IMG/VR virus record: IMGVR_UViG_3300026413_000011
Span: 62,001-125,376 of that record
Origin: an uncultured virus (IMG/VR IMGVR_UViG_3300026413_000011)
Lineage: Duplodnaviria > Heunggongvirae > Uroviricota > Caudoviricetes
Length of the DNA stretch: 63,376 bases
Direction: 5' to 3' (one strand)
The notes below the pieces were generated by a model. The model was not told the origin of the DNA. It worked only from the letters and a program-made list of their open reading frames with translations, and ran no database searches. A program made the position numbers and the translations under genes. Shown here one piece after another: positions 23,160 to 62,518 of this stretch. Position 1 is the stretch's first letter. Each line of letters starts with the position of its first letter.

Positions 23160-24422
23160 TCACCCCTTTACACAAAGGAACTGTTTGAGCGTATGAACGA
23201 TTTCTACCAGTTCTTCTTGTGCAGCCATTACGTCTTCGATGTTCTTGTATGCCTTTGGAGTTTCATCGATCACGTCGATATCCTTACGGCATTCTACACC
23301 CGCGGTATCACGGATGTGATCTTCGAGCGTAAAGGTTTTAGCTGCTTGGGTACGAGACATCACTCGACCTGCGCCATGCGAACACGAGCAGAACGAATCA
23401 CGGTTACCCTTACCACGAACGATAAAGGACTTTGCACCCATCGACCCAGGGATAATACCCAACACCCCTTGAGAAGCGTTTACGGCACCCTTACGAGTAA
23501 CGAGTACGTTGTTACCCATGTGTCGTTCTTCCGACACGTAGTTGTGGTGACAGTTGATCGCACCCATATCTGAATCGATCGGCAGACCCAGTACGTTGTG
23601 GATTGCACCCAAGGTGGCATGCATCATCAAAGAACGGTTCAGTGCAGCAAACCGTTGTGCCCACGATACAGCACCAATGTAGTCTTGGTAATACTTCGAG
23701 CCTTCTGGCAAGTAAGCGAGGTCACCATCTGGCAGATGGATGAAGAAACGTTGCATCTCTTCTTTTGCCTTGGCGATGAAGTAAGTGCCGATTGCGTTAC
23801 CAATACCACGCGAACCAGAATGCAGCATTACCCACACTTGATCAGTTTCATCCAGACACAGTTCGATGAAGTGGTTACCAGTACCGAGAGTACCTACGTG
23901 ATTCCATGCACGCTGTGCTGCTTTAGCCAACTTAGGATGTTTCTCACAGATCCAATCCAGTTGCTTACGAAGTTCGAATGCTTCGTCACGAATAGCTTTG
24001 ACTGGGTGATCGAATACCTTTACAGTACCGAAAGCACCACGGTCATTCTTACCGCCGTTATCAGTACGGCCATGTGGAACGGCTGCTTCGATAGCTGCAC
24101 GCAGATGACCCAAGGACTCTGGTAGTGCGGTCGACTTAAAGGTCAAACGTTGTGCCGCCATTCCACAGCCGATGTCAACACCTACAGCTGCTGGAATGAT
24201 TGCACCTTTGGTGGCAACCACAGAACCTACCGTTGCACCTTTACCCAGATGTACATCGGGCATCACAGCAATGTGGGAATAGATGAACGGTAGCGATGCA
24301 ATGTTCTTGAGTTGCTTAACCGCATCGGGTTCAACTGGAACACCAACGGTCCAGCCTTTGATTGGCTTGGAACCTGGAGCTGGTTCACCGCCGATGATTT
24401 CGAATGTACGTGTCTGTTTCAT
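23160..24422 (-). CDS. rtcB: RtcB RNA 3'-phosphate/5'-OH ligase
   Basis: MPDVHLGKGATVG, VGVDIGCG, GTLGTGNHFIE, LHSGSRG, HHNY, IPGSMG, SCSHGAGR, DETPKAYK motifs. Confidence 0.95.
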   Translation of the reverse strand: MKQTRTFEIIGGEPAPGSKPIKGWTVGVPVEPDAVKQLKNIASLPFIYSHIAVMPDVHLGKGATVGSVVATKGAIIPAAVGVDIGCGMAAQRLTFKSTALPESLGHLRAAIEAAVPHGRTDNGGKNDRGAFGTVKVFDHPVKAIRDEAFELRKQLDWICEKHPKLAKAAQRAWNHVGTLGTGNHFIELCLDETDQVWVMLHSGSRGIGNAIGTYFIAKAKEEMQRFFIHLPDGDLAYLPEGSKYYQDYIGAVSWAQRFAALNRSLMMHATLGAIHNVLGLPIDSDMGAINCHHNYVSEERHMGNNVLVTRKGAVNASQGVLGIIPGSMGAKSFIVRGKGNRDSFCSCSHGAGRVMSRTQAAKTFTLEDHIRDTAGVECRKDIDVIDETPKAYKNIEDVMAAQEELVEIVHTLKQFLCVKG

Positions 24423-24447
24423 ATAGCTCTCGCGGATGGAATAGAGT

Positions 24448-24795
24448 TTAAAGGGTATTGCGTTTAGACAAACCAAAACTAAGGACGTAACGAGTACCTT
24501 TAGTTACTTGGCTTACGCTGTGAGTGTGTAGATCAGGACGGAACAATGTGAAGAAGCGATTGCTTATGATCACATCATCGTGTTCTGGTACACCACCTGC
24601 TTGTGCATTCCACAAGTAGATGTTTAATCTGTAGTGACTGTGATCTGGCAATGGATCACGATGCCGTGGTATCCCTGCACCTACCCGATATCGCAATAAG
24701 TAGAGATCCCATTTGAAACGACTGAAGTACCGCCAACGGTTTATCAACTTCAGTTTTTCGTAACCTGTTCCTTGACGCCCAAGTTCCCATTTCAT
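24448..24795 (-). CDS. 2OG-Fe(II) dioxygenase-fold protein
   Basis: HRD...HSV...GTRYVLS: HxD/H/R facial-triad pattern. Confidence 0.75.
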   Translation of the reverse strand: MKWELGRQGTGYEKLKLINRWRYFSRFKWDLYLLRYRVGAGIPRHRDPLPDHSHYRLNIYLWNAQAGGVPEHDDVIISNRFFTLFRPDLHTHSVSQVTKGTRYVLSFGLSKRNTL

Positions 24796-24861
24796 TGCGA
24801 TACCTCGCGTAAGAATTGAGATTGCGAAATAAAGGAGGCCGAAGCCTCCCCTACAACTAGA

Positions 24862-25218
24862 CTAACGGTTGGCCAAGTAAGTTTGTAAGTCTTCATGGTA
24901 ATCACCTCGGTCGTAAGTACTCGCCTGTCCTTTTAACAAGAACTCCAGCGTGACTTCTTCCGGCTCCCACTGATCTTCGAGGCCCATGCATGAACAATGA
25001 GATCCGAAGACTTCGTAGTACTTACCATCTTTGACGAATAGCACGTATGCTTTACCGCAGTAGTTACTATAATCATCGTGGTAATAAGCGTGAACAATGT
25101 CACAGCCAGCGATTACCGACTCGTCGATTCGAAAATCTTCGAGCATTTGTTGAAGACCGTTTTCTTTCCAGGTTTCGTGAAACATGTTACTGATTCCATT
25201 GACAGGCGAAAATGCCAT
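24862..25218 (-). CDS. hypothetical phage protein
   Basis: AAGGA SD; GSHCSCMGLEDQWEPE motif; own promoter-like motif 25252-25280. Confidence 0.7.
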   Translation of the reverse strand: MAFSPVNGISNMFHETWKENGLQQMLEDFRIDESVIAGCDIVHAYYHDDYSNYCGKAYVLFVKDGKYYEVFGSHCSCMGLEDQWEPEEVTLEFLLKGQASTYDRGDYHEDLQTYLANR

Positions 25219-25319
25219 TGCATTTCCTTGTAGTTGTCAACGGTTAGTCCAGTATACTGTATCCTGACGAGTATTCTTTTAACGACATAAAGCCTTCCCC
25301 GCAGGGAAGACCGTATGCC

Positions 25320-25592
25320 ATATAGTAGAACCAGAGATTATCGTCTAACACACAGAGCGTCCTCCGTGTTAATAGATTGATAAGTCCAGTCACCGCATTG
25401 GGGTAGTTCGCAACTCAGTCTGTCCTCCCCATACGGGAGGCTCTGGCGACGGATGCTCACGGATATCCAACACGACTTACCCAGATTAATGAAGTCACTC
25501 TCTAATCCAGGCTGCGGTAAGGAGCTTGACAGACTCCGTTATTAGTGGCCTTCCGCCCGAACTGGTAAACCGCTAAGACCAGTTTATTTCAT
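25320..25592 (-). ncRNA. candidate ~270-nt multi-pseudoknotted non-coding RNA
   Basis: no ORF; promoter-like motif 25591-25618 and terminator at about 25284-25311; four crossing long-range helices plus local hairpins. Confidence 0.6.
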
Positions 25593-25612
25593 AACATTAC
25601 ACTCCTAGTATT

Positions 25613-26515
25613 TTATTTCAGGAATGTACCGCATGAAGCTTTTACATCTGTGCCCACCCGAGGGATCACTTTAACCTTTCCTACGTTAGGGAAGTTTCGA
25701 ATTACATCCGCTAGGAAGTAGATGTATTCTTCTGGTGGTTCTTTTGAGTCATGTCCTTCCGGCGGGTTGTAACGTACGATGTTCCAGTTCACAGTGAGAC
25801 CGTAGGCATAGACCATGTTACAGCAGTCGAGTACATTGTCTACAGAGTCATTTTCTCCATCGATAAAGGCGTAATGAATCTTGGGGATTTTGCCTGTTTG
25901 CTCTTGCCATTGTCGGAGCATACGCAAGGCATTGTTACACGGTATTGCTTTTGGCAACCAACGCTTACGGAACTTCACCTCTGTGGAATACATTGAGTAG
26001 TAAAGTTCAGGATACACGCTGGGGTCTTTGAAGATATCTGTCAGGGCTAAGTCACCCATCTCCTTAGGCATGATCGTAGAGATCAAAAACTTAGGTGTCA
26101 ATGCCCATTTCTTTGCGAGGTCCCGCAGGCGGCCCAAGATCTCATCGGCATTCTCCAAGAAGATCTTATTAGCCAATGGTTCACCACGGGCCATGAAGTT
26201 GAAGTGGACCTTATTAGCAAACTTACCGGTGTAAGACAGCCGTCGTCCGTAGTGTTCCATTACTCGTTCGGCTTGTTGCAGATATTCGTCCACAGTAACG
26301 TCACGAGATTTGTTCTGTCCTGTTTGAGTCAACCAACACATACGACAGGCTTGTTCACATCCAGTCTGAGAAGACAGGTAAACGATGAAGTAATCGTCAG
26401 TCCGTTGGACATACCGCGCTTCCAACATACCTGGTCCATCTTCCAAACGATGTTCGAAGTTTACTGACCGATCAAGTTCAGACCAATGTTCGCGGAAGAT
26501 CAATTTATTTTCCAT
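25613..26515 (-). CDS. RlmN/Cfr-like radical SAM RNA methyltransferase
   Basis: SSQTGCEQACRMC (CxxxCxxC), FMARGEPL, C-terminal ASCG. Confidence 0.85.
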   Translation of the reverse strand: MENKLIFREHWSELDRSVNFEHRLEDGPGMLEARYVQRTDDYFIVYLSSQTGCEQACRMCWLTQTGQNKSRDVTVDEYLQQAERVMEHYGRRLSYTGKFANKVHFNFMARGEPLANKIFLENADEILGRLRDLAKKWALTPKFLISTIMPKEMGDLALTDIFKDPSVYPELYYSMYSTEVKFRKRWLPKAIPCNNALRMLRQWQEQTGKIPKIHYAFIDGENDSVDNVLDCCNMVYAYGLTVNWNIVRYNPPEGHDSKEPPEEYIYFLADVIRNFPNVGKVKVIPRVGTDVKASCGTFLK

Positions 26516-26974: not shown

Positions 26975-27050
26975 TGGTGCCGCCACACGGATTCGAACCG
27001 GGGACCTGCTGATTACAAGTCAGCTGCTCTACCAACTGAGCTATAGCGGC
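26975..27050 (-). tRNA. tRNA-Thr(UGU)
   Basis: full cloverleaf, loop CT-TGT-AA, encoded CCA. Confidence 0.95.
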
Positions 27051-27051
27051 T

Positions 27052-27137
27052 TGGAGCTGAGAGAGGGATTCGAACCCCCGAGATCTTTCGATGCAGGATT
27101 TGCAATCCCGTGCATTCAACCACTCTGCCATCTCAGC
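27052..27137 (-). tRNA. tRNA-Cys(GCA) with long variable arm
   Basis: loop TT-GCA-AA, U73, CCA; 14-nt variable region with ATC-GAAA-GAT hairpin. Confidence 0.85.
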
Positions 27138-27145
27138 TTTGTAAC

Positions 27146-27235
27146 TGGCGGAAGCATAGAGATTCGAACTCTAGGACCCACTTAAGGGTCGCGGGTTTTC
27201 AAGGCCCGAGCCATTGACCACTCGGCCATACTTCC
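27146..27235 (-). tRNA. tRNA-Ser(UGA)
   Basis: long variable arm, loop CT-TGA-AA, G73, CCA. Confidence 0.93.
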
Positions 27236-27242
27236 TGGTAAT

Positions 27243-27327
<85 letters not shown>

Positions 27328-27330
27328 TCG

Positions 27331-27357
27331 TATATTATTATACTCGTAGTATTTTTT
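27331..27357 (-). promoter_or_regulatory. putative phage (middle-type) promoter for tRNA unit 1
   Basis: AAAATACT-N13-TATA; same motif precedes tRNA units 2 and 3. Confidence 0.65.
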
Positions 27358-27395: not shown

Positions 27396-28355
27396 ATGTT
27401 TGAACAATTATTATTTCCTGGGAAGCCCCCTAAGAAATTAGAGACTCGCGTAACGTTGGTTGGTGACCTATTACCCGGCAACTCTGGAGCTATGGCCATT
27501 GGCTGTAACGGTGGTATATACCTTGGAGGTGGTCGACTTCAGGATGGTAGTGGTGGTGCAATATCGACTTTCCGAAGATTTGATCTTACTACACGACAGT
27601 GGGTGAACTTAGCTAACTTACCAAATGGTCGGTCAGGTGGTACACTGTCTTACTGGAATGGAAAGATCTATCTATTCTCCGGTAATACGGTCAACTCATC
27701 GACCTATACCAAAGAGTTGCATGCTTACGACATTGCTACAGACACTTGGACTTCTCTTACCCCTACTCCGAACTTGGGACGTACTTACCATGGTGCAGTT
27801 GTATACCAAGGAGAGATCTATTTCTTTGGTGGCTGGAACGGTACTCAAGCTACACCGCAATTAAGGTTAGCCGATGTCTACACCATTTCAAATAATACTT
27901 GGCGTGTGATTGCACAATTGCCAGAATCCAGACATGGACACGCTATCGCAATTTCTGGTACTGGGGTTTATATTTTCGGTGGGTTGACTAACGGTGGATC
28001 TAAAACGAATAACGACATAATTCGTTATACCATCGGCGATAACGTATACAACGGATTTGTTGCTCCAGCCACACAACCTGCCATTCGATGCTATTCCTGT
28101 TTGCTTCCAGCTTATGGCAAGTTCTATGTGTTCGGCGGTTATACGGATGGTAACGCTACAGATTCCTTAGCTGACTTCTGGGAATACATCCCTGGACTAA
28201 ACAGTTGGCGTAATCTTACCCTTACTGGCGATACGCTAACCAAACGTGGTGGTTTCGCTTCAGCAGTTGAGAATGGAGAGTTCCACTTCTTCAACGGTTT
28301 AGGTAAGGCAGGTGATGCGTCTATGGTTCGTACCGATCACCTTTACATTGAATGA
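27396..28355 (+). CDS. Kelch-repeat beta-propeller protein, probably virion-associated
   Basis: six GG...Y/W kelch repeats; N-terminal MFEQLL tag. Confidence 0.85.
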   Translation: MFEQLLFPGKPPKKLETRVTLVGDLLPGNSGAMAIGCNGGIYLGGGRLQDGSGGAISTFRRFDLTTRQWVNLANLPNGRSGGTLSYWNGKIYLFSGNTVNSSTYTKELHAYDIATDTWTSLTPTPNLGRTYHGAVVYQGEIYFFGGWNGTQATPQLRLADVYTISNNTWRVIAQLPESRHGHAIAISGTGVYIFGGLTNGGSKTNNDIIRYTIGDNVYNGFVAPATQPAIRCYSCLLPAYGKFYVFGGYTDGNATDSLADFWEYIPGLNSWRNLTLTGDTLTKRGGFASAVENGEFHFFNGLGKAGDASMVRTDHLYIE

Positions 28356-29132: not shown

Positions 29133-29217
29133 TGGTGCCGGAAGCGAGATTCGAACTCGCGATCCCGATGGGCGACGCATTTTAAGTGCGTTGTGTATTC
29201 CACTCCACCATTCCGGC
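29133..29217 (-). tRNA. tRNA-Leu(UAA)
   Basis: loop CT-TAA-AA, long variable arm, CCA. Confidence 0.93.
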
Positions 29218-29974
29218 TAATTAGTCCCAGCTATACAAACTTGTAGATCGCCACTGGGGAACTTTTCAACCTAACACATCGCTGTTCATGAAGACTAGCA
29301 CGGAAGTTAGGTCTATCTACTACTCACCTCACAAGCAGCTTCAGAATGCGATGGAGGGCAAGTATTCGAGAATATGTGCACACCAAGTAACCACTCAAGA
29401 GGTACACCCGTGTGCGCGGAGGAAACGCCCTTCCTCATTGGGACTATGACCACCCGAAGGCTCACTGTCGTGCAGATGGCCTCACATCTAAAACCCTTAG
29501 GTTCTCAATGTAGACCGGTGACGGAATCTACTAATCCGTTGTAGCCGAGTCATCACGCTTCTTCGGAATGAGCGCCTTAGTAACCAGGACTATCTGGCCT
29601 TTGGGGTATCGAGGGTACGGGCATCGAGTTTCCCTGTTAACTGATTACTCTAGTCTTTTATCAGTCGTCATTGGGTATCATTCATAGAACTCACAAGTGC
29701 AACTCTGCGCCCTAGTCTGAGGATTAATCAGACACCTGTGTAGTCCAGAGCCTAGGACGGATTAAGTCCAAGGTCTTGCATCTCTCAGTGGAGAGACGTA
29801 TTGTAAGAGAGTGATGAAACGATCCTCTACCTTCATCTATTCGGACTCAGGCGACCTTTTCAGCGCAGTGGGGTGGAGTGCACTTACCCAACACCCTGTC
29901 ATGGGCTCTTACAAAATCGATTGCCTAAGGTGTGTTAGACCAGAGGACTTGCAGACCGAAGTCTGTGATGAAAT
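29218..29974 (-). ncRNA. candidate large structured ncRNA (or series of RNAs) between tRNA-Trp and tRNA-Leu
   Basis: ~750 nt with no ORF of 60 aa or more; many hairpins and long-range closing stems. Confidence 0.55.
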
Positions 29975-30050
29975 TGGCGGGCCATGATGGACTCGAACCA
30001 CCAACACCCGGCTTTGGAGGCCGGTGTTCTGCCAATTGAACTAATGACCC
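29975..30050 (-). tRNA. tRNA-Trp(CCA)
   Basis: loop CT-CCA-AA, G73, CCA. Confidence 0.93.
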
Positions 30051-33063: not shown

Positions 33064-33138
33064 TGGCTCCCACTCCTGGATTCGAACCAGGGACCGCACG
33101 GTTAACAGCCGTGTGCTCTACCGCTGAGCTAAGTGGGA
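33064..33138 (-). tRNA. tRNA-Asn(GUU)
   Basis: loop CT-GTT-AA, G73, CCA. Confidence 0.95.
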
Positions 33139-33143
33139 ATGTT

Positions 33144-33219
33144 TGGCTCCGAGACCAGGGTTCGAACCTGGGACCAACGGATTAACAGTCCGCTGCTCTA
33201 CCTACTGAGCTATCTCGAA
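33144..33219 (-). tRNA. tRNA-Asn(GUU), second divergent copy
   Basis: loop CT-GTT-AA, G73, CCA. Confidence 0.95.
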
Positions 33220-33416
33220 TGAAATTGAATTGCGATACCAGGCTTCCTCTGGATGACCTTTGACCCTAGCTCGCTGTGTGGACTAGGAGGCGCTTGAAAT
33301 CTTTACCCGAACAGTTCCCTAGTAATTGATTACCCTGCGCGTCAGGTCGCGTTTACTAGGTAGGCGCGTAGCGTCGCCTCGTTTTAGTTCTGTACCTAAG
33401 TACCTTCTGTTCGGCA

Positions 33417-33492
33417 CACCGACCTGCGGGGATCGAACCCGCGACATCAACCCTGATACAGGGTGCGCTCTCCCAACTGAGCTAAGGTGGTG
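33417..33492 (-). ncRNA. tRNA-like element / pseudo-tRNA with aberrant anticodon arm
   Basis: canonical D and T arms; anticodon arm ACCCTG-TAT-CAGGGT, bulged acceptor stem, no CCA. Confidence 0.65.
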
Positions 33493-33499
33493 ATGAAAC

Positions 33500-33576
33500 T
33501 GGTCTAAGTGGGAGGACTCGAACCTCCGACCACGTGGTCCCAAACCACGCATTCTATCCAACTGAACTACACTTAG
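33500..33576 (-). tRNA. tRNA-Pro(UGG)
   Basis: loop TT-TGG-GA, C1-G72, A73, CCA. Confidence 0.95.
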
Positions 33577-33777
33577 AGAAAAGGGTGATCACCTTGTTAC
33601 CTGGACTCTACCTACCGTACGAATCGGTAAGTGGTGTTTGTCAGAAGATGATCGACTAGCAGTCGCCGGTCCGCCCGGTCATGGGGTTTTAACCCTTCGA
33701 TGCTAGTAAAGATTACCAAGGCTTGCAACGAGCTAACGGTTACCCGTTTGGTGCAAGAGCTGATCCGGTAATCGAAT

Positions 33778-33853
33778 TGGCGACTCCAAGGGGATTTGAA
33801 CCCCTGACCACCGGCGTGACAGGCCGGTACGCTAACCGCTGCGCTATGGAGCC
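33778..33853 (-). tRNA. tRNA-Asp(GUC)
   Basis: loop CT-GTC-AC, G73, CCA. Confidence 0.95.
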
Positions 33854-33863
33854 GTAAAACATC

Positions 33864-33957
33864 GAATTAGTAGCGCTCTAACCTGTAAGCTAACAGCCCT
33901 GTTGGGTAGGCGGGCCTTCCGAGTCAAGGGTATTGAACCCAAGTCCTCTACTAATTC
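33864..33957 (-). ncRNA. circularly permuted tRNA-like RNA (T arm before D arm; YrlA-like topology)
   Basis: 10-bp terminal stem GAATTAGTAG/CTACTAATTC enclosing a GGG-TTCAATA-CCC T arm, then a TA-GCTT-ACAGGTTA-GAGC D arm. Confidence 0.6.
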
Positions 33958-33961
33958 AAAT

Positions 33962-34044
33962 TGGTGGGTTGGCGTGGATTCGAACCACGGTAGCCTAGGC
34001 GCGGATTTACAGTCCGATGGGTTTGACCGCTCCCCTAACAACCC
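33962..34044 (-). tRNA. tRNA-Tyr(GUA)
   Basis: loop CT-GTA-AA, variable arm, A73, CCA. Confidence 0.93.
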
Positions 34045-34082
34045 TTAAAGCAAACAATGTCGTTTATAACGCCATCGTGAAT

Positions 34083-34159
34083 TGGTGTGAACGGAGAGGA
34101 TTGAACTCTCGACCACTGGAGTCACATTCCAGGGTTCTACCAACTGAACTACGTTCACC
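34083..34159 (-). tRNA. tRNA-His(GUG)
   Basis: loop AT-GTG-AC, encoded G-1, A73, CCA. Confidence 0.9.
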
Positions 34160-35990: not shown

Positions 35991-36050
35991 TGTGGTTCTC
36001 CTTCTGTAACATACGATTGCGGCATAAAGGCCATCCCGAAGGATAGCCCT

Positions 36051-36146
36051 TACAAGTGACAATCACAGAAGGATCTCTTCTAGAAGCGCTCCGTAGGATG
36101 CTCCGGCGAGTGACTGGGTGGTGTTGAGGCACGCAGGTCCTCAACT
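36051..36146 (-). ncRNA. candidate stand-alone ~100-nt small RNA
   Basis: between promoter-like motif 36146-36173 and terminator 36020-36050; hairpins GTTGAGG/CCTCAAC and AGAAG/CTTCT. Confidence 0.45.
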
Positions 36147-36174
36147 ATACTATCTCCCGCCAAGTATTTTATTC

Positions 36175-61750: not shown

Positions 61751-62518
61751 ATGTACAAGCGTTGTGAGAAGCCAGCACCTAATACGACAATCGATTTGAG
61801 TGTATTTGGCAATCCATGTGACATCTATCAAAATATGCTGAACCGAATCGATGCACTGCGTCGGTTACGGTCACAGTGGCCCCGTTGTGACATTGGTCGC
61901 TTCGATGTGCAATTCCAGCTTTCCGATGCAATGACTTATTACTTCACCATTTTCGACAAAGCGAATGGTGAACGGTACGAATGGTCTGTCCGTAAGGAAT
62001 ATACCAAGGAAAGCGCTGAGCACGCATTTGAGCGTGATTACAATGAATCGTCCCTACGGTACAACGCAGGTGTTCGACGTGCCTTAGACGATCATCTAGA
62101 GGCCTTGGAAGAAGAATATCCGAATGCTCATTACCGGTTGGAAGAAACTGACAACGGTTATCGAGTTTGGAGACCTATTGTTGGAGACGTTGGGGTGGTT
62201 CCATTCCAATTAGACTTCATCGGTTATCCAGGAGCAGGCATTTTCCCAGGGGAACCCCGCACCGATATTTGGGATTACATTGGTAACATCCCAGGGGAAG
62301 CTGGTCGAGCTGTAGCACGATTGGTTCGTCGGTTGATTAAACTCGGTGTTGTGTTCGATCATGTTGAACGTAATATCGTTAAGGACTATCGAGCTATTGT
62401 TTTGGAAGGTTATGCTTACCGGAACAGTGACACCCACACTAAGGTTAAGCTAACTCTCCAGGAAGTTGCATTGCTGGATCGTGAACTTGATCAATACCAC
62501 GAAATTTTCACGAGGTAA
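61751..62518 (+). CDS. hypothetical protein
   Basis: GGAG SD. Confidence 0.7.
   Translation: MYKRCEKPAPNTTIDLSVFGNPCDIYQNMLNRIDALRRLRSQWPRCDIGRFDVQFQLSDAMTYYFTIFDKANGERYEWSVRKEYTKESAEHAFERDYNESSLRYNAGVRRALDDHLEALEEEYPNAHYRLEETDNGYRVWRPIVGDVGVVPFQLDFIGYPGAGIFPGEPRTDIWDYIGNIPGEAGRAVARLVRRLIKLGVVFDHVERNIVKDYRAIVLEGYAYRNSDTHTKVKLTLQEVALLDRELDQYHEIFTR

Follow-up and report, generated by a model that had tools for sequence, protein, structure and literature searches.

The window, meaning the whole stretch of DNA analysed here, is 63,376 nucleotides long and comes from an uncultured virus of the Caudoviricetes (positions 62,001 to 125,376 of IMG/VR record IMGVR_UViG_3300026413_000011). It is part of a 125-kb virus record and a near-identical 305-kb contig is present in IMG/VR. 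The window is a tRNA-rich region of a phiKZ-like jumbo phage of the 201phi2-1/Psa21/D6 group. The element under study is a non-coding RNA of approximately 305 nt encoded on the minus strand. It lies in a 390-nt gap behind a radical-SAM gene and is followed on the same strand by p118, p115 and RtcB. The radical-SAM protein is 62-67% identical to its counterparts in the Pseudomonas phages Viktualia, 201phi2-1, D6, RVTF4, Psa21 and Phabio. The original prediction had placed a self-standing structured RNA in this gap and this held, as the unit of about 305 nt has its own promoter and terminator. The best overall explanation, to which we give an even chance, is an independent, abundant and new RNA of about 305 nt in a tRNA-damage/repair cassette. 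The features of the locus are listed below with the evidence for each.

25284..25590, minus strand: non-coding RNA, about 305 nt (no Rfam or tRNA match, fold z = -3.3, ten copies, separate RNA-library contigs)
25588..25612, minus strand: phage promoter, AATACT (25612-25607), N, GTAAT, N, TATG (25593-25590) (motif recurrence and conservation)
25284..25319, minus strand: terminator, GGCAUA, 9-bp GC hairpin, UAUGUC including CUUUAUG (covarying stem, contig ends)
25250..25275, minus strand: second promoter of the same class, for p118 (motif; contig of run X20 starts at 25253)
25613-26515, minus strand: radical-SAM gene, distantly RlmN/Cfr-like (NCBIfam RlmN E = 4e-17, far under the family cut-off)
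24862-25218, minus strand: p118, probable ATG at 25185
24448-24795, minus strand: p115, small 2OG-Fe(II)-oxygenase-like protein (many relatives with PF13640)
23160-24476, minus strand: RtcB (Pfam match E = 4e-128)
23160..25218, minus strand: linked cassette of p118, p115 and RtcB (co-occurrence across loci)

Homologous loci were fetched via the radical-SAM protein from GenBank phages, IMG/VR and metagenomes. Ten distinct copies of the RNA were found, namely those of the window, phages D6, RVTF4 and Psa21, and loci L036, L035, L018, L026, L021 and L025. The D6 region was found by blastn at 78% identity. The radical-SAM-based metagenome scan covered 80 loci, only two of which carried a new RNA (L035 and L036). 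An RtcB-based scan of viral sequences returned 54 loci. No new RNA was found in the 52 that were searched, the two copies of the window's phage being excluded, or in three other RtcB loci. When run on 98 sources (563 kb), a covariance model of the 5' domain, R1, matched no sequence other than its ten seed RNAs. Five genomes that bear the RNA gave a single strong match each, and five whole genomes of relatives lacking the RNA gave none. G003, a complete genome nearly identical to that of the window's phage, also gave a weak second R1 match at C1:303070-303154 (locus L175; 19.5 bits, E = 0.036), which is probably due to chance. Eight loci of the same group have the radical-SAM gene followed by protein genes and no RNA (Viktualia, 201phi2-1, Phabio, L017, L020, L023, L027 and L034). 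By these searches the RNA appears confined so far to one clade of Pseudomonas-type chimalliviruses.

A promoter-like stretch had been noted at 25591-25618. The radical-SAM stop codon TAA occupies 25615-25613 of this stretch and is followed directly by AATACT, GTAAT and TATG. The start site of the RNA probably lies near 25592-25588. Further copies of the extended motif AATACT-N-GTAAT-N-TAT(G/A) stand on this strand at 27353, 30183, 34210, 36168 and 25275. The first three of these copies are directly 5' of tRNA-Leu, tRNA-Trp and tRNA-His, respectively, and the motif in front of the RNA is kept in all ten homologues. The tRNA-Leu of 201phi2-1 is driven by a middle-class promoter, according to the part of PMC11512511 available to us. 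The terminator suggested at 25284-25311 corresponds to a GC-rich hairpin plus CTTTATG at approximately 25319-25284. The window has 18 C[TA]TTATG sites, 11 of which come after a GC-rich hairpin as judged by eye, making this the standard terminator of the phage, and the terminator stem of the RNA covaries across all ten copies. With a phage promoter upstream and a hairpin plus CUUUAUG downstream, the elements of a stand-alone phiKZ-like transcription unit are both present. Past the terminator and ahead of p118, relatives and the window alike have another promoter of this class. A generic scan of 25150-25700 returned no sigma-70 promoters and no U-tract terminators, so the promoter and terminator calls rest on the phage-specific motifs. 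We take the empty scan to reflect the use by these phages of their own polymerases (PMC11512511, available part).

Twenty-four public sequencing runs contain the stretch and 22 of them are soil metatranscriptomes, each from a different coded study. Contigs were mapped for four runs with partial coverage (X20, X22, X23 and X24). Three of the four had a separate contig confined to the RNA and unjoined to its neighbours.

25284-25557: contig of run X23, assembly depth 220
25284-25436: contig of run X20, assembly depth 227
25327-25575: contig of run X24, assembly depth 54

Neighbouring contigs had depths of 11-58 on p118 and 3-6 on the radical-SAM gene. The X23 and X20 contigs both stop at precisely 25284, where the terminator motif ends. 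The mapping tool cautions against ordering genes by contig depth, and a 10- to 60-fold step between adjacent stretches is not expected from uniform DNA carry-over. There is thus moderate evidence that the RNA is a discrete, abundant transcript.

The gap had been described as free of open reading frames (ORFs), with a first ATG that reads ATG AAA TAA. This description was upheld in that no ORF is conserved among the ten homologues. It is extremely unlikely that the stretch is a small protein gene or a neutral spacer rather than a functional RNA. The window copy does contain ORFs of 27-40 amino acids, and a coding sequence annotated by the depositor of D6 overlaps the 3' end of the RNA. However, ORFs of at least 25 amino acids differ in place and frame among the copies, and the D6 coding sequence is p118 with an over-long start. 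Substitutions between the window and D6 are not 3-periodic (18/26/27) and indels are mostly of 1-2 nt. The strong compensatory change described below also argues against a protein gene or spacer.

The RNA had been called a class that was not recognised, and searches of known families agree with this. Rfam 15 (4227 models) gave no gathering-threshold match on the RNA, and the 13 gathering matches in the window were tRNAs elsewhere. A focused Rfam scan of 25150-25700 at E<=10 gave two chance-level edge matches, NBR2 at 22.8 bits (cut-off 40) and IS009 at 9.6 bits (cut-off 117). ARAGORN predicted no tRNA or tmRNA at 25284-25590 and there was no tRNA-clan match at E<=10. Several candidate classes were rejected. 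Group I introns and known self-cleaving ribozymes gave no model match, and the RNA sits between a stop codon and a promoter and has its own promoter. A T-box leader was set aside as there was no Rfam match and no conserved alternative pairing to the terminator was seen. No covariance-model match was obtained for GOLLD or ROOL. A bacterial Y RNA of the YrlA type was rejected on the lack of a Y-RNA model match and on its ends, as the 5' and 3' ends of the phage RNA were paired with each other in none of the folds. No description of the RNA was found in the literature searched and Rfam has no entry for it. A 17-nt stretch of the RNA was absent from the six searchable supplementary files of a catalogue of 10,006 viral structured-RNA candidates (PMC10690425), a search that did not extend to the alignment files. 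The motifs of that catalogue are short (29-151 nt) and some overlap with the RNA may exist (PMC10690425). The RNA appears to be a new family without a known relative.

The single-sequence fold of the RNA is better than that of shuffled sequences (z = -3.3; none of 100 shuffles was as good). The conserved fold is a row of five stems (H1, H2, H3, the P4 domain and the P5 domain) with a short pseudoknot and a possible loop-loop contact. Its elements are listed from the 5' end.

25561..25583, minus strand: H1 hairpin, RNA positions 8-13 with 25-30 (ACUGGU/ACCAGU), 11-nt loop CUUAGCGGUUU (covariation)
25547..25557, minus strand: small optional hairpin GGC-GGAAG-GCC (alignment reading)
25521..25537, minus strand: H2, 5 bp and a 7-nt loop CUGUCAA (25532-25526) (covariation)
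25514..25518, minus strand: ACCGC strand, RNA positions 73-77, probably pairing with GCGGU of the H1 loop (RNA positions 18-22, 25573-25569) (pseudoknot)
25481..25510, minus strand: H3 long hairpin, RNA positions 81-92 with 99-110 (CUGGAUUA/UAAUCUGG), loop GUGACU (covariation)
25392..25476, minus strand: P4 long-range helix, RNA positions 115-124 with 190-199, enclosing a variable central domain (covariation)
25329..25391, minus strand: 3' domain, P5 (RNA positions 200-206 with 256-262) closing a long irregular hairpin with the tip ACACGGAG-GACG-CUCUGUGU

An alignment by MAFFT with RNAalifold gave 35 predicted pairs, 26 of them with two-sided changes. MAFFT mis-registers several helices and the helix coordinates were therefore set for each sequence, the pairs being counted by script. 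In H1, 56 of 60 cells were canonical on these per-sequence coordinates and two-sided changes occurred at six of six positions. The covariance-model alignment A7 has H1 out of register in the window, D6, RVTF4 and L035, which accounts for the lower count of 73.5% paired returned by the tool. The small optional hairpin has a GGAAGA-like loop in most relatives. It is absent from RVTF4, while its GGC/GCC stem carries the loop UCGC in D6 and GAAAA in L036. All 50 stem cells of H2 were paired, with two-sided changes at all five positions. Ten of the 12 pairs of H3 had two-sided changes and the per-sequence folds agree.

A pseudoknot between the H1 loop and the strand between H2 and H3 is probable. 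Its columns 23 and 84 form C-G in seven RNAs and U-A in three and are unpaired in none, and the two neighbouring G-C pairs are present in ten of ten. The contact is weak in L021, L025 and Psa21. It is not significant in single sequences, as an equal or longer complement occurred in 13-99% of shuffles, so that its only support is the exchange of C-G for U-A. The H3 loop contains UGAC in all ten RNAs and this is complementary to GUCA of the H2 loop. Both sides are invariant, and a contact between the two loops, within one molecule or between molecules, is for that reason only a possible one.

In P4, eight to ten of ten pairs were canonical in nine RNAs. Six were canonical in RVTF4, where the register was chosen by hand and is ambiguous, the top-scoring partner differing from the homology-based choice. 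Variants of the P4 core include GUCGU/GCGGC, GUCAU/GUGGC and AUCGU/GCGGU, and its extension also covaries (UUGG/CCAA, UAAUAA/UUAUUA and AGUU/AACU). The central domain contains the hairpin CCUCCC/GGGAGG at 25440-25424, which is CCAUCC/GGAUGG in D6. P5 was canonical in 63 of 63 cells with eight different strand pairs among the ten RNAs. The central and 3' domains vary by subgroup. In the window, D6 and L036 the 3' domain is a single long hairpin with the loop GACG at its tip, where GGAG/CUCU becomes GGUG/CACU in L036. The other seven RNAs have P5-P6-P7 with a single-stranded near-palindrome centred on GGCC. This is GGCCGGCC in four RNAs, GCUGGCCAGC in Psa21 and UUGGCCGA in RVTF4 and L035.

Across the 5' domain, 76.9% of cells were paired compared to 61.4% in shuffles (0/500 reached the observed value). 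The covariation score was 0.475, compared to 0.188 in shuffles (0/500) and 0.08-0.20 in slid controls, on an alignment that is model-fitted and leans towards structure. The covariation expected among homologues was thus found, with compensatory changes beyond the shuffles, and these comparisons support an RNA structure under selection.

The four local hairpins of the original prediction are all present. H1, H3 and CCUCCC/GGGAGG change in a compensatory way in relatives, and UAACAC/GUGUUA is a portion of the longer 3' hairpin. That prediction also proposed a compact RNA held together by four mutually crossing helices (RNA positions 56-63/167-174, 73-78/194-199, 110-117/205-212 and 145-150/255-260). 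The complementarity is perfect in the window (8/8, 6/6, 8/8 and 6/6), but these helices are not the conserved fold. Pairs 1 and 2 decay in the closest relatives, with 5/8 and 3/6 matching in D6 and 6/8 and 5/6 in L036, while pairs 3 and 4 persist in both (7/8 and 5/6 in each). None of the four has a counterpart in the other seven RNAs. Each also competes with a helix that all ten RNAs maintain through compensatory change, namely H2 for pair 1, the pseudoknot strand and P4 for pair 2, the outer part of P4 and P6 for pair 3, and P5 for pair 4. A fold built on the four crossing helices is thus very unlikely, and pairs 3 and 4 may be alternatives specific to the subgroup of the window, D6 and L036.

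The position of the RNA raises the option of a cis-acting leader. A riboswitch- or T-box-like element would let the terminator control read-through into p118-p115-RtcB, and in one variant tRNA-Asp would be sensed through the GAC-containing H3 loop. The RNA is always directly upstream of the cassette and in the same direction, it has a terminator hairpin at its 3' end, and the Asp codon GAC is in the H3 loop in ten of ten copies. However, p118 is preceded, after the terminator, by a complete promoter of this class, both in the window and in relatives. The RNA contigs end at the terminator and the p118 contig begins at the second promoter. Rfam gave no T-box or riboswitch match and no conserved alternative to the terminator stem was seen. 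L021 and L025 are without the UGG-containing strand that a T-box-like contact with the tRNA 3' end requires. The second promoter and the contig boundaries make a leader unlikely. T-box leaders resemble the RNA in that a hairpin loop holds the codon GAC, able to read an anticodon, and a terminator follows. They differ in that the codon of the RNA is in a terminal loop rather than in a specifier bulge, there is no conserved antiterminator and the downstream promoter is separate.

The RNA had also been suggested as a partner of the neighbouring RNA enzymes. For RtcB this agrees with the distribution, as RtcB lies within approximately 2 kb in ten of ten RNA loci (0.5-2 kb downstream; RtcB 79-89% identical). 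For the RlmN-like gene the link looks only positional. This gene is present in eight related loci without the RNA, and its adjacency to the RNA seems to be a matter of position. p118 is downstream of the RNA in nine of ten loci, the exception being Psa21. In L037 the radical-SAM gene is followed directly by p115, and 201phi2-1 and Phabio have neither the RNA nor RtcB. The RNA always has RtcB nearby but RtcB also occurs without the RNA, so the RNA looks like an optional front part of the RtcB cassette. Judged by this gene content, RNA-p118-(p115)-RtcB looks like an accessory cassette inserted after the RlmN-like gene.

The p118 family has only nine relatives in a search of 5.8 billion proteins. 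A model of p118 (predicted local distance difference test score, pLDDT, 71) had no Foldseek match at E<=0.001, the best being E = 0.6. The best VIA Z was 5.2, to a designed protein, and a few Whirly/PUR-like rows had Z of 3.3-4.4, all within noise. The RNA may be the scaffold of a small ribonucleoprotein that binds p118, RtcB or both and organises damaged RNAs, for example by pairing of the UGAC loop with GUC-A of tRNA-Asp anticodon loops. This role is consistent with p118 standing right after the RNA in nine of ten loci and with a family found almost only together with the RNA. The elaborate conserved tertiary contacts and the invariant UGAC loop also fit. Against it, Psa21 has the RNA without p118, and the p118 model has no clear fold match. 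A scaffold is somewhat unlikely taken singly, and is about as likely as the decoy mechanism described below.

Two further observations were made on p118. In the p118 region (24826-25253) two RNA-library contigs look circular or head-to-tail. In X20, 24826 is joined to 25253 via one extra letter and in X23, 24882 is joined to 25162, so the junctions differ by run. Such junctions might come from ligated RNA, from template switching or from an error of assembly. The p118 5' untranslated region (UTR) has a hairpin, CCGUUGACA...UGUCAAUGG, at 25196-25243 on the minus strand, just 5' of the probable start ATG at 25185. The arms are GUUCAAGC...GCUUGAA in group-B relatives. They differ yet still pair, so the pairing is kept via compensatory change, and the hairpin may control translation of p118. 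Trans-pairing of the H2 loop with this hairpin (UUGACA) was considered and dropped because the UTR differs in group B and the H2 loop does not. The end of p115 overlaps the start of RtcB by 29 nt, which may couple a dioxygenase translationally to RtcB. The p115 family is widespread and very small (about 115 amino acids) and is also found in phages without the RNA, such as Phabio and Lu11.

RtcB seals breaks with 2',3'-cyclic-phosphate and 5'-OH ends such as anticodon nucleases leave. A catalytic or self-processing RNA, the ribozyme-like option of the original prediction, could supply such ends for circularisation or trans-ligation by RtcB. Its compact pseudoknotted fold, its invariant loop and junction bases and the adjacent RtcB would suit such a role. 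The RNA matches no known self-cleaving family, however, no cleavage-site signature was seen, and the RNA-library contigs over the RNA are linear pieces without joints. Catalysis is therefore improbable.

H2 looks like the anticodon stem-loop of tRNA-Asp with its GUC anticodon. Of the features of an anticodon arm (5-bp stem, 7-nt loop, Y32, U33 and R37), 5 bp with a 7-nt loop, C as the first loop base and A after GUC are each present in ten of ten RNAs, and the U33 position holds U in only seven. The loop has the form C-N-GUC-A-A and its GUCAA is invariant. The tRNA-Asp of the phage has the anticodon loop CUGUCAC and the D-loop AGCGGUUA. The H1 loop, UAGCGGUUUA, is close to this D-loop, which is a lead only as AGYGGTT occurs 24 times in the window. 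The window contains 13 tRNA genes according to ARAGORN, including all GUN anticodons (tRNA-Asp, two tRNA-Asn, tRNA-Tyr and tRNA-His), in the following clusters.

33064-34158, 26975-27327 and 29133-30050: tRNA genes, with the GUN-anticodon tRNAs (Asp, two Asn, Tyr and His) in one cluster

The promoter motif of the RNA also stands in front of at least three tRNA clusters. Some colicin E5-type nucleases cut tRNAs with GUN anticodons, and RlmN makes m2A37 in tRNA-Asp, among others. From this setting the RNA would be the RNA component of a tRNA-damage/repair module. The geometry of H2, the likeness to tRNA-Asp and the linkage to RtcB suggest a mimic of the tRNA-Asp arm that works with RtcB as a decoy or capture platform. 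In this mechanism H2 would present an arm like that of the tRNA-Asp anticodon, and a host factor which binds or attacks anticodon loops of the GUN type would be titrated by the abundant RNA or be offered it as a target. Breaks that result could be resealed by the co-encoded RtcB. Such a tRNA-Asp-arm decoy or repair partner is the most likely single mechanism, held tentatively. In a more specific form, the RNA would show a tRNA-Asp arm together with a complementary 'codon' loop and, with RtcB, would act against host nucleases or other factors aimed at GUN loops, as a decoy or capture platform that heals itself. This fuller version is rather doubtful.

A number of points weigh against these interpretations. 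The depths come from assemblies and not from raw reads, the contigs give neither strand nor true ends, and one of the four runs, X22, had no contig over the RNA. The covariation counts are inflated by relatedness, as all ten RNAs belong to a single phage clade. The second base of the H2 loop, at the U33 position, is U in seven RNAs, C in two and A in one. AGYGGTT and YNGTCAA are short motifs that occur often in the window. As a whole the RNA does not resemble a tRNA, with no tRNA model match at E<=10 and no ARAGORN call. An H2 loop that is paired with the H3 loop of its own molecule would not be available as a decoy, and 300 nt is far above the needs of a decoy. RtcB also occurs without the RNA in Viktualia, G001 and G002 (62-65% identity, elsewhere in the genome) and in L122 (83% identity, same lineage, other context).

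The RNA was compared with known systems. The Y RNA operon has the layout rsr-yrlBA-rtcBA. The phage RNA resembles the bacterial Y RNAs YrlA and YrlB in being a non-coding RNA next to RtcB with partial tRNA mimicry (PMC4201824, available part). It differs in its length of about 300 nt compared to about 100 nt, in having no long terminal Ro-binding stem and in the absence of Ro60 from the genomes that carry it. Ro60 (TROVE, PF05731) was absent from five of five RNA-bearing phage genomes, and the control was positive in two of 14 reference genomes, including Deinococcus. GOLLD and ROOL are likewise large, intricately folded RNAs carried by phages, of unknown function and often near tRNA genes. 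Complementary or palindromic loops could in principle mediate self-assembly. The phage RNA is half their size or less, has another architecture and occurs in Pseudomonas-type chimalliviruses. With tRNA-Asp and tmRNA it shares the promoter class of the phage tRNAs, the H2 anticodon-arm geometry with GUC and the D-loop-like H1 loop, but it has no cloverleaf, acceptor stem, T arm or CCA end. The small RNAs (sRNAs) of 201phi2-1 and phiKZ detected by ONT-cappable-seq are small transcripts with the same promoter and terminator types, as far as the available part of PMC11512511 describes them. For 201phi2-1 that part lists 11 sRNAs of <250 nt and gives most sRNAs as 5'-UTR derived (PMC11512511). Those of 201phi2-1 are shorter and its genome has no copy of this RNA.

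Two other features were observed in the window. A second short unit of similar layout lies at 36022-36168 on the minus strand, and a stop codon immediately precedes its promoter motif at 36168. It consists of about 125 nt with a GUUGAGG...CCUCAAC hairpin and a hairpin plus CTTTATG terminator at 36029, followed by the ribosome binding site of the next gene, and may be a further small RNA of the phage. A Kelch-repeat beta-propeller protein (Pfam E = 1e-38) is encoded at 27396-28355 on the plus strand amid the tRNA genes and is annotated as 'galactose oxidase' in D6.

Despite much work on nucleus-forming jumbo phages, neither Rfam nor the literature searched assigns a large structured RNA to them. 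The RNA is a new object for RNA structural biology, with a conserved fold that looks tertiary, an apparently high abundance and a strict link to an RtcB cassette. The cultured phages Psa21, D6 and RVTF4 carry the RNA, which makes it directly testable. If the self-healing decoy or capture platform were true it would be an RNA-based counter-defence of an undescribed kind. Study of the RNA may show how phages withstand attacks by the host on tRNAs.

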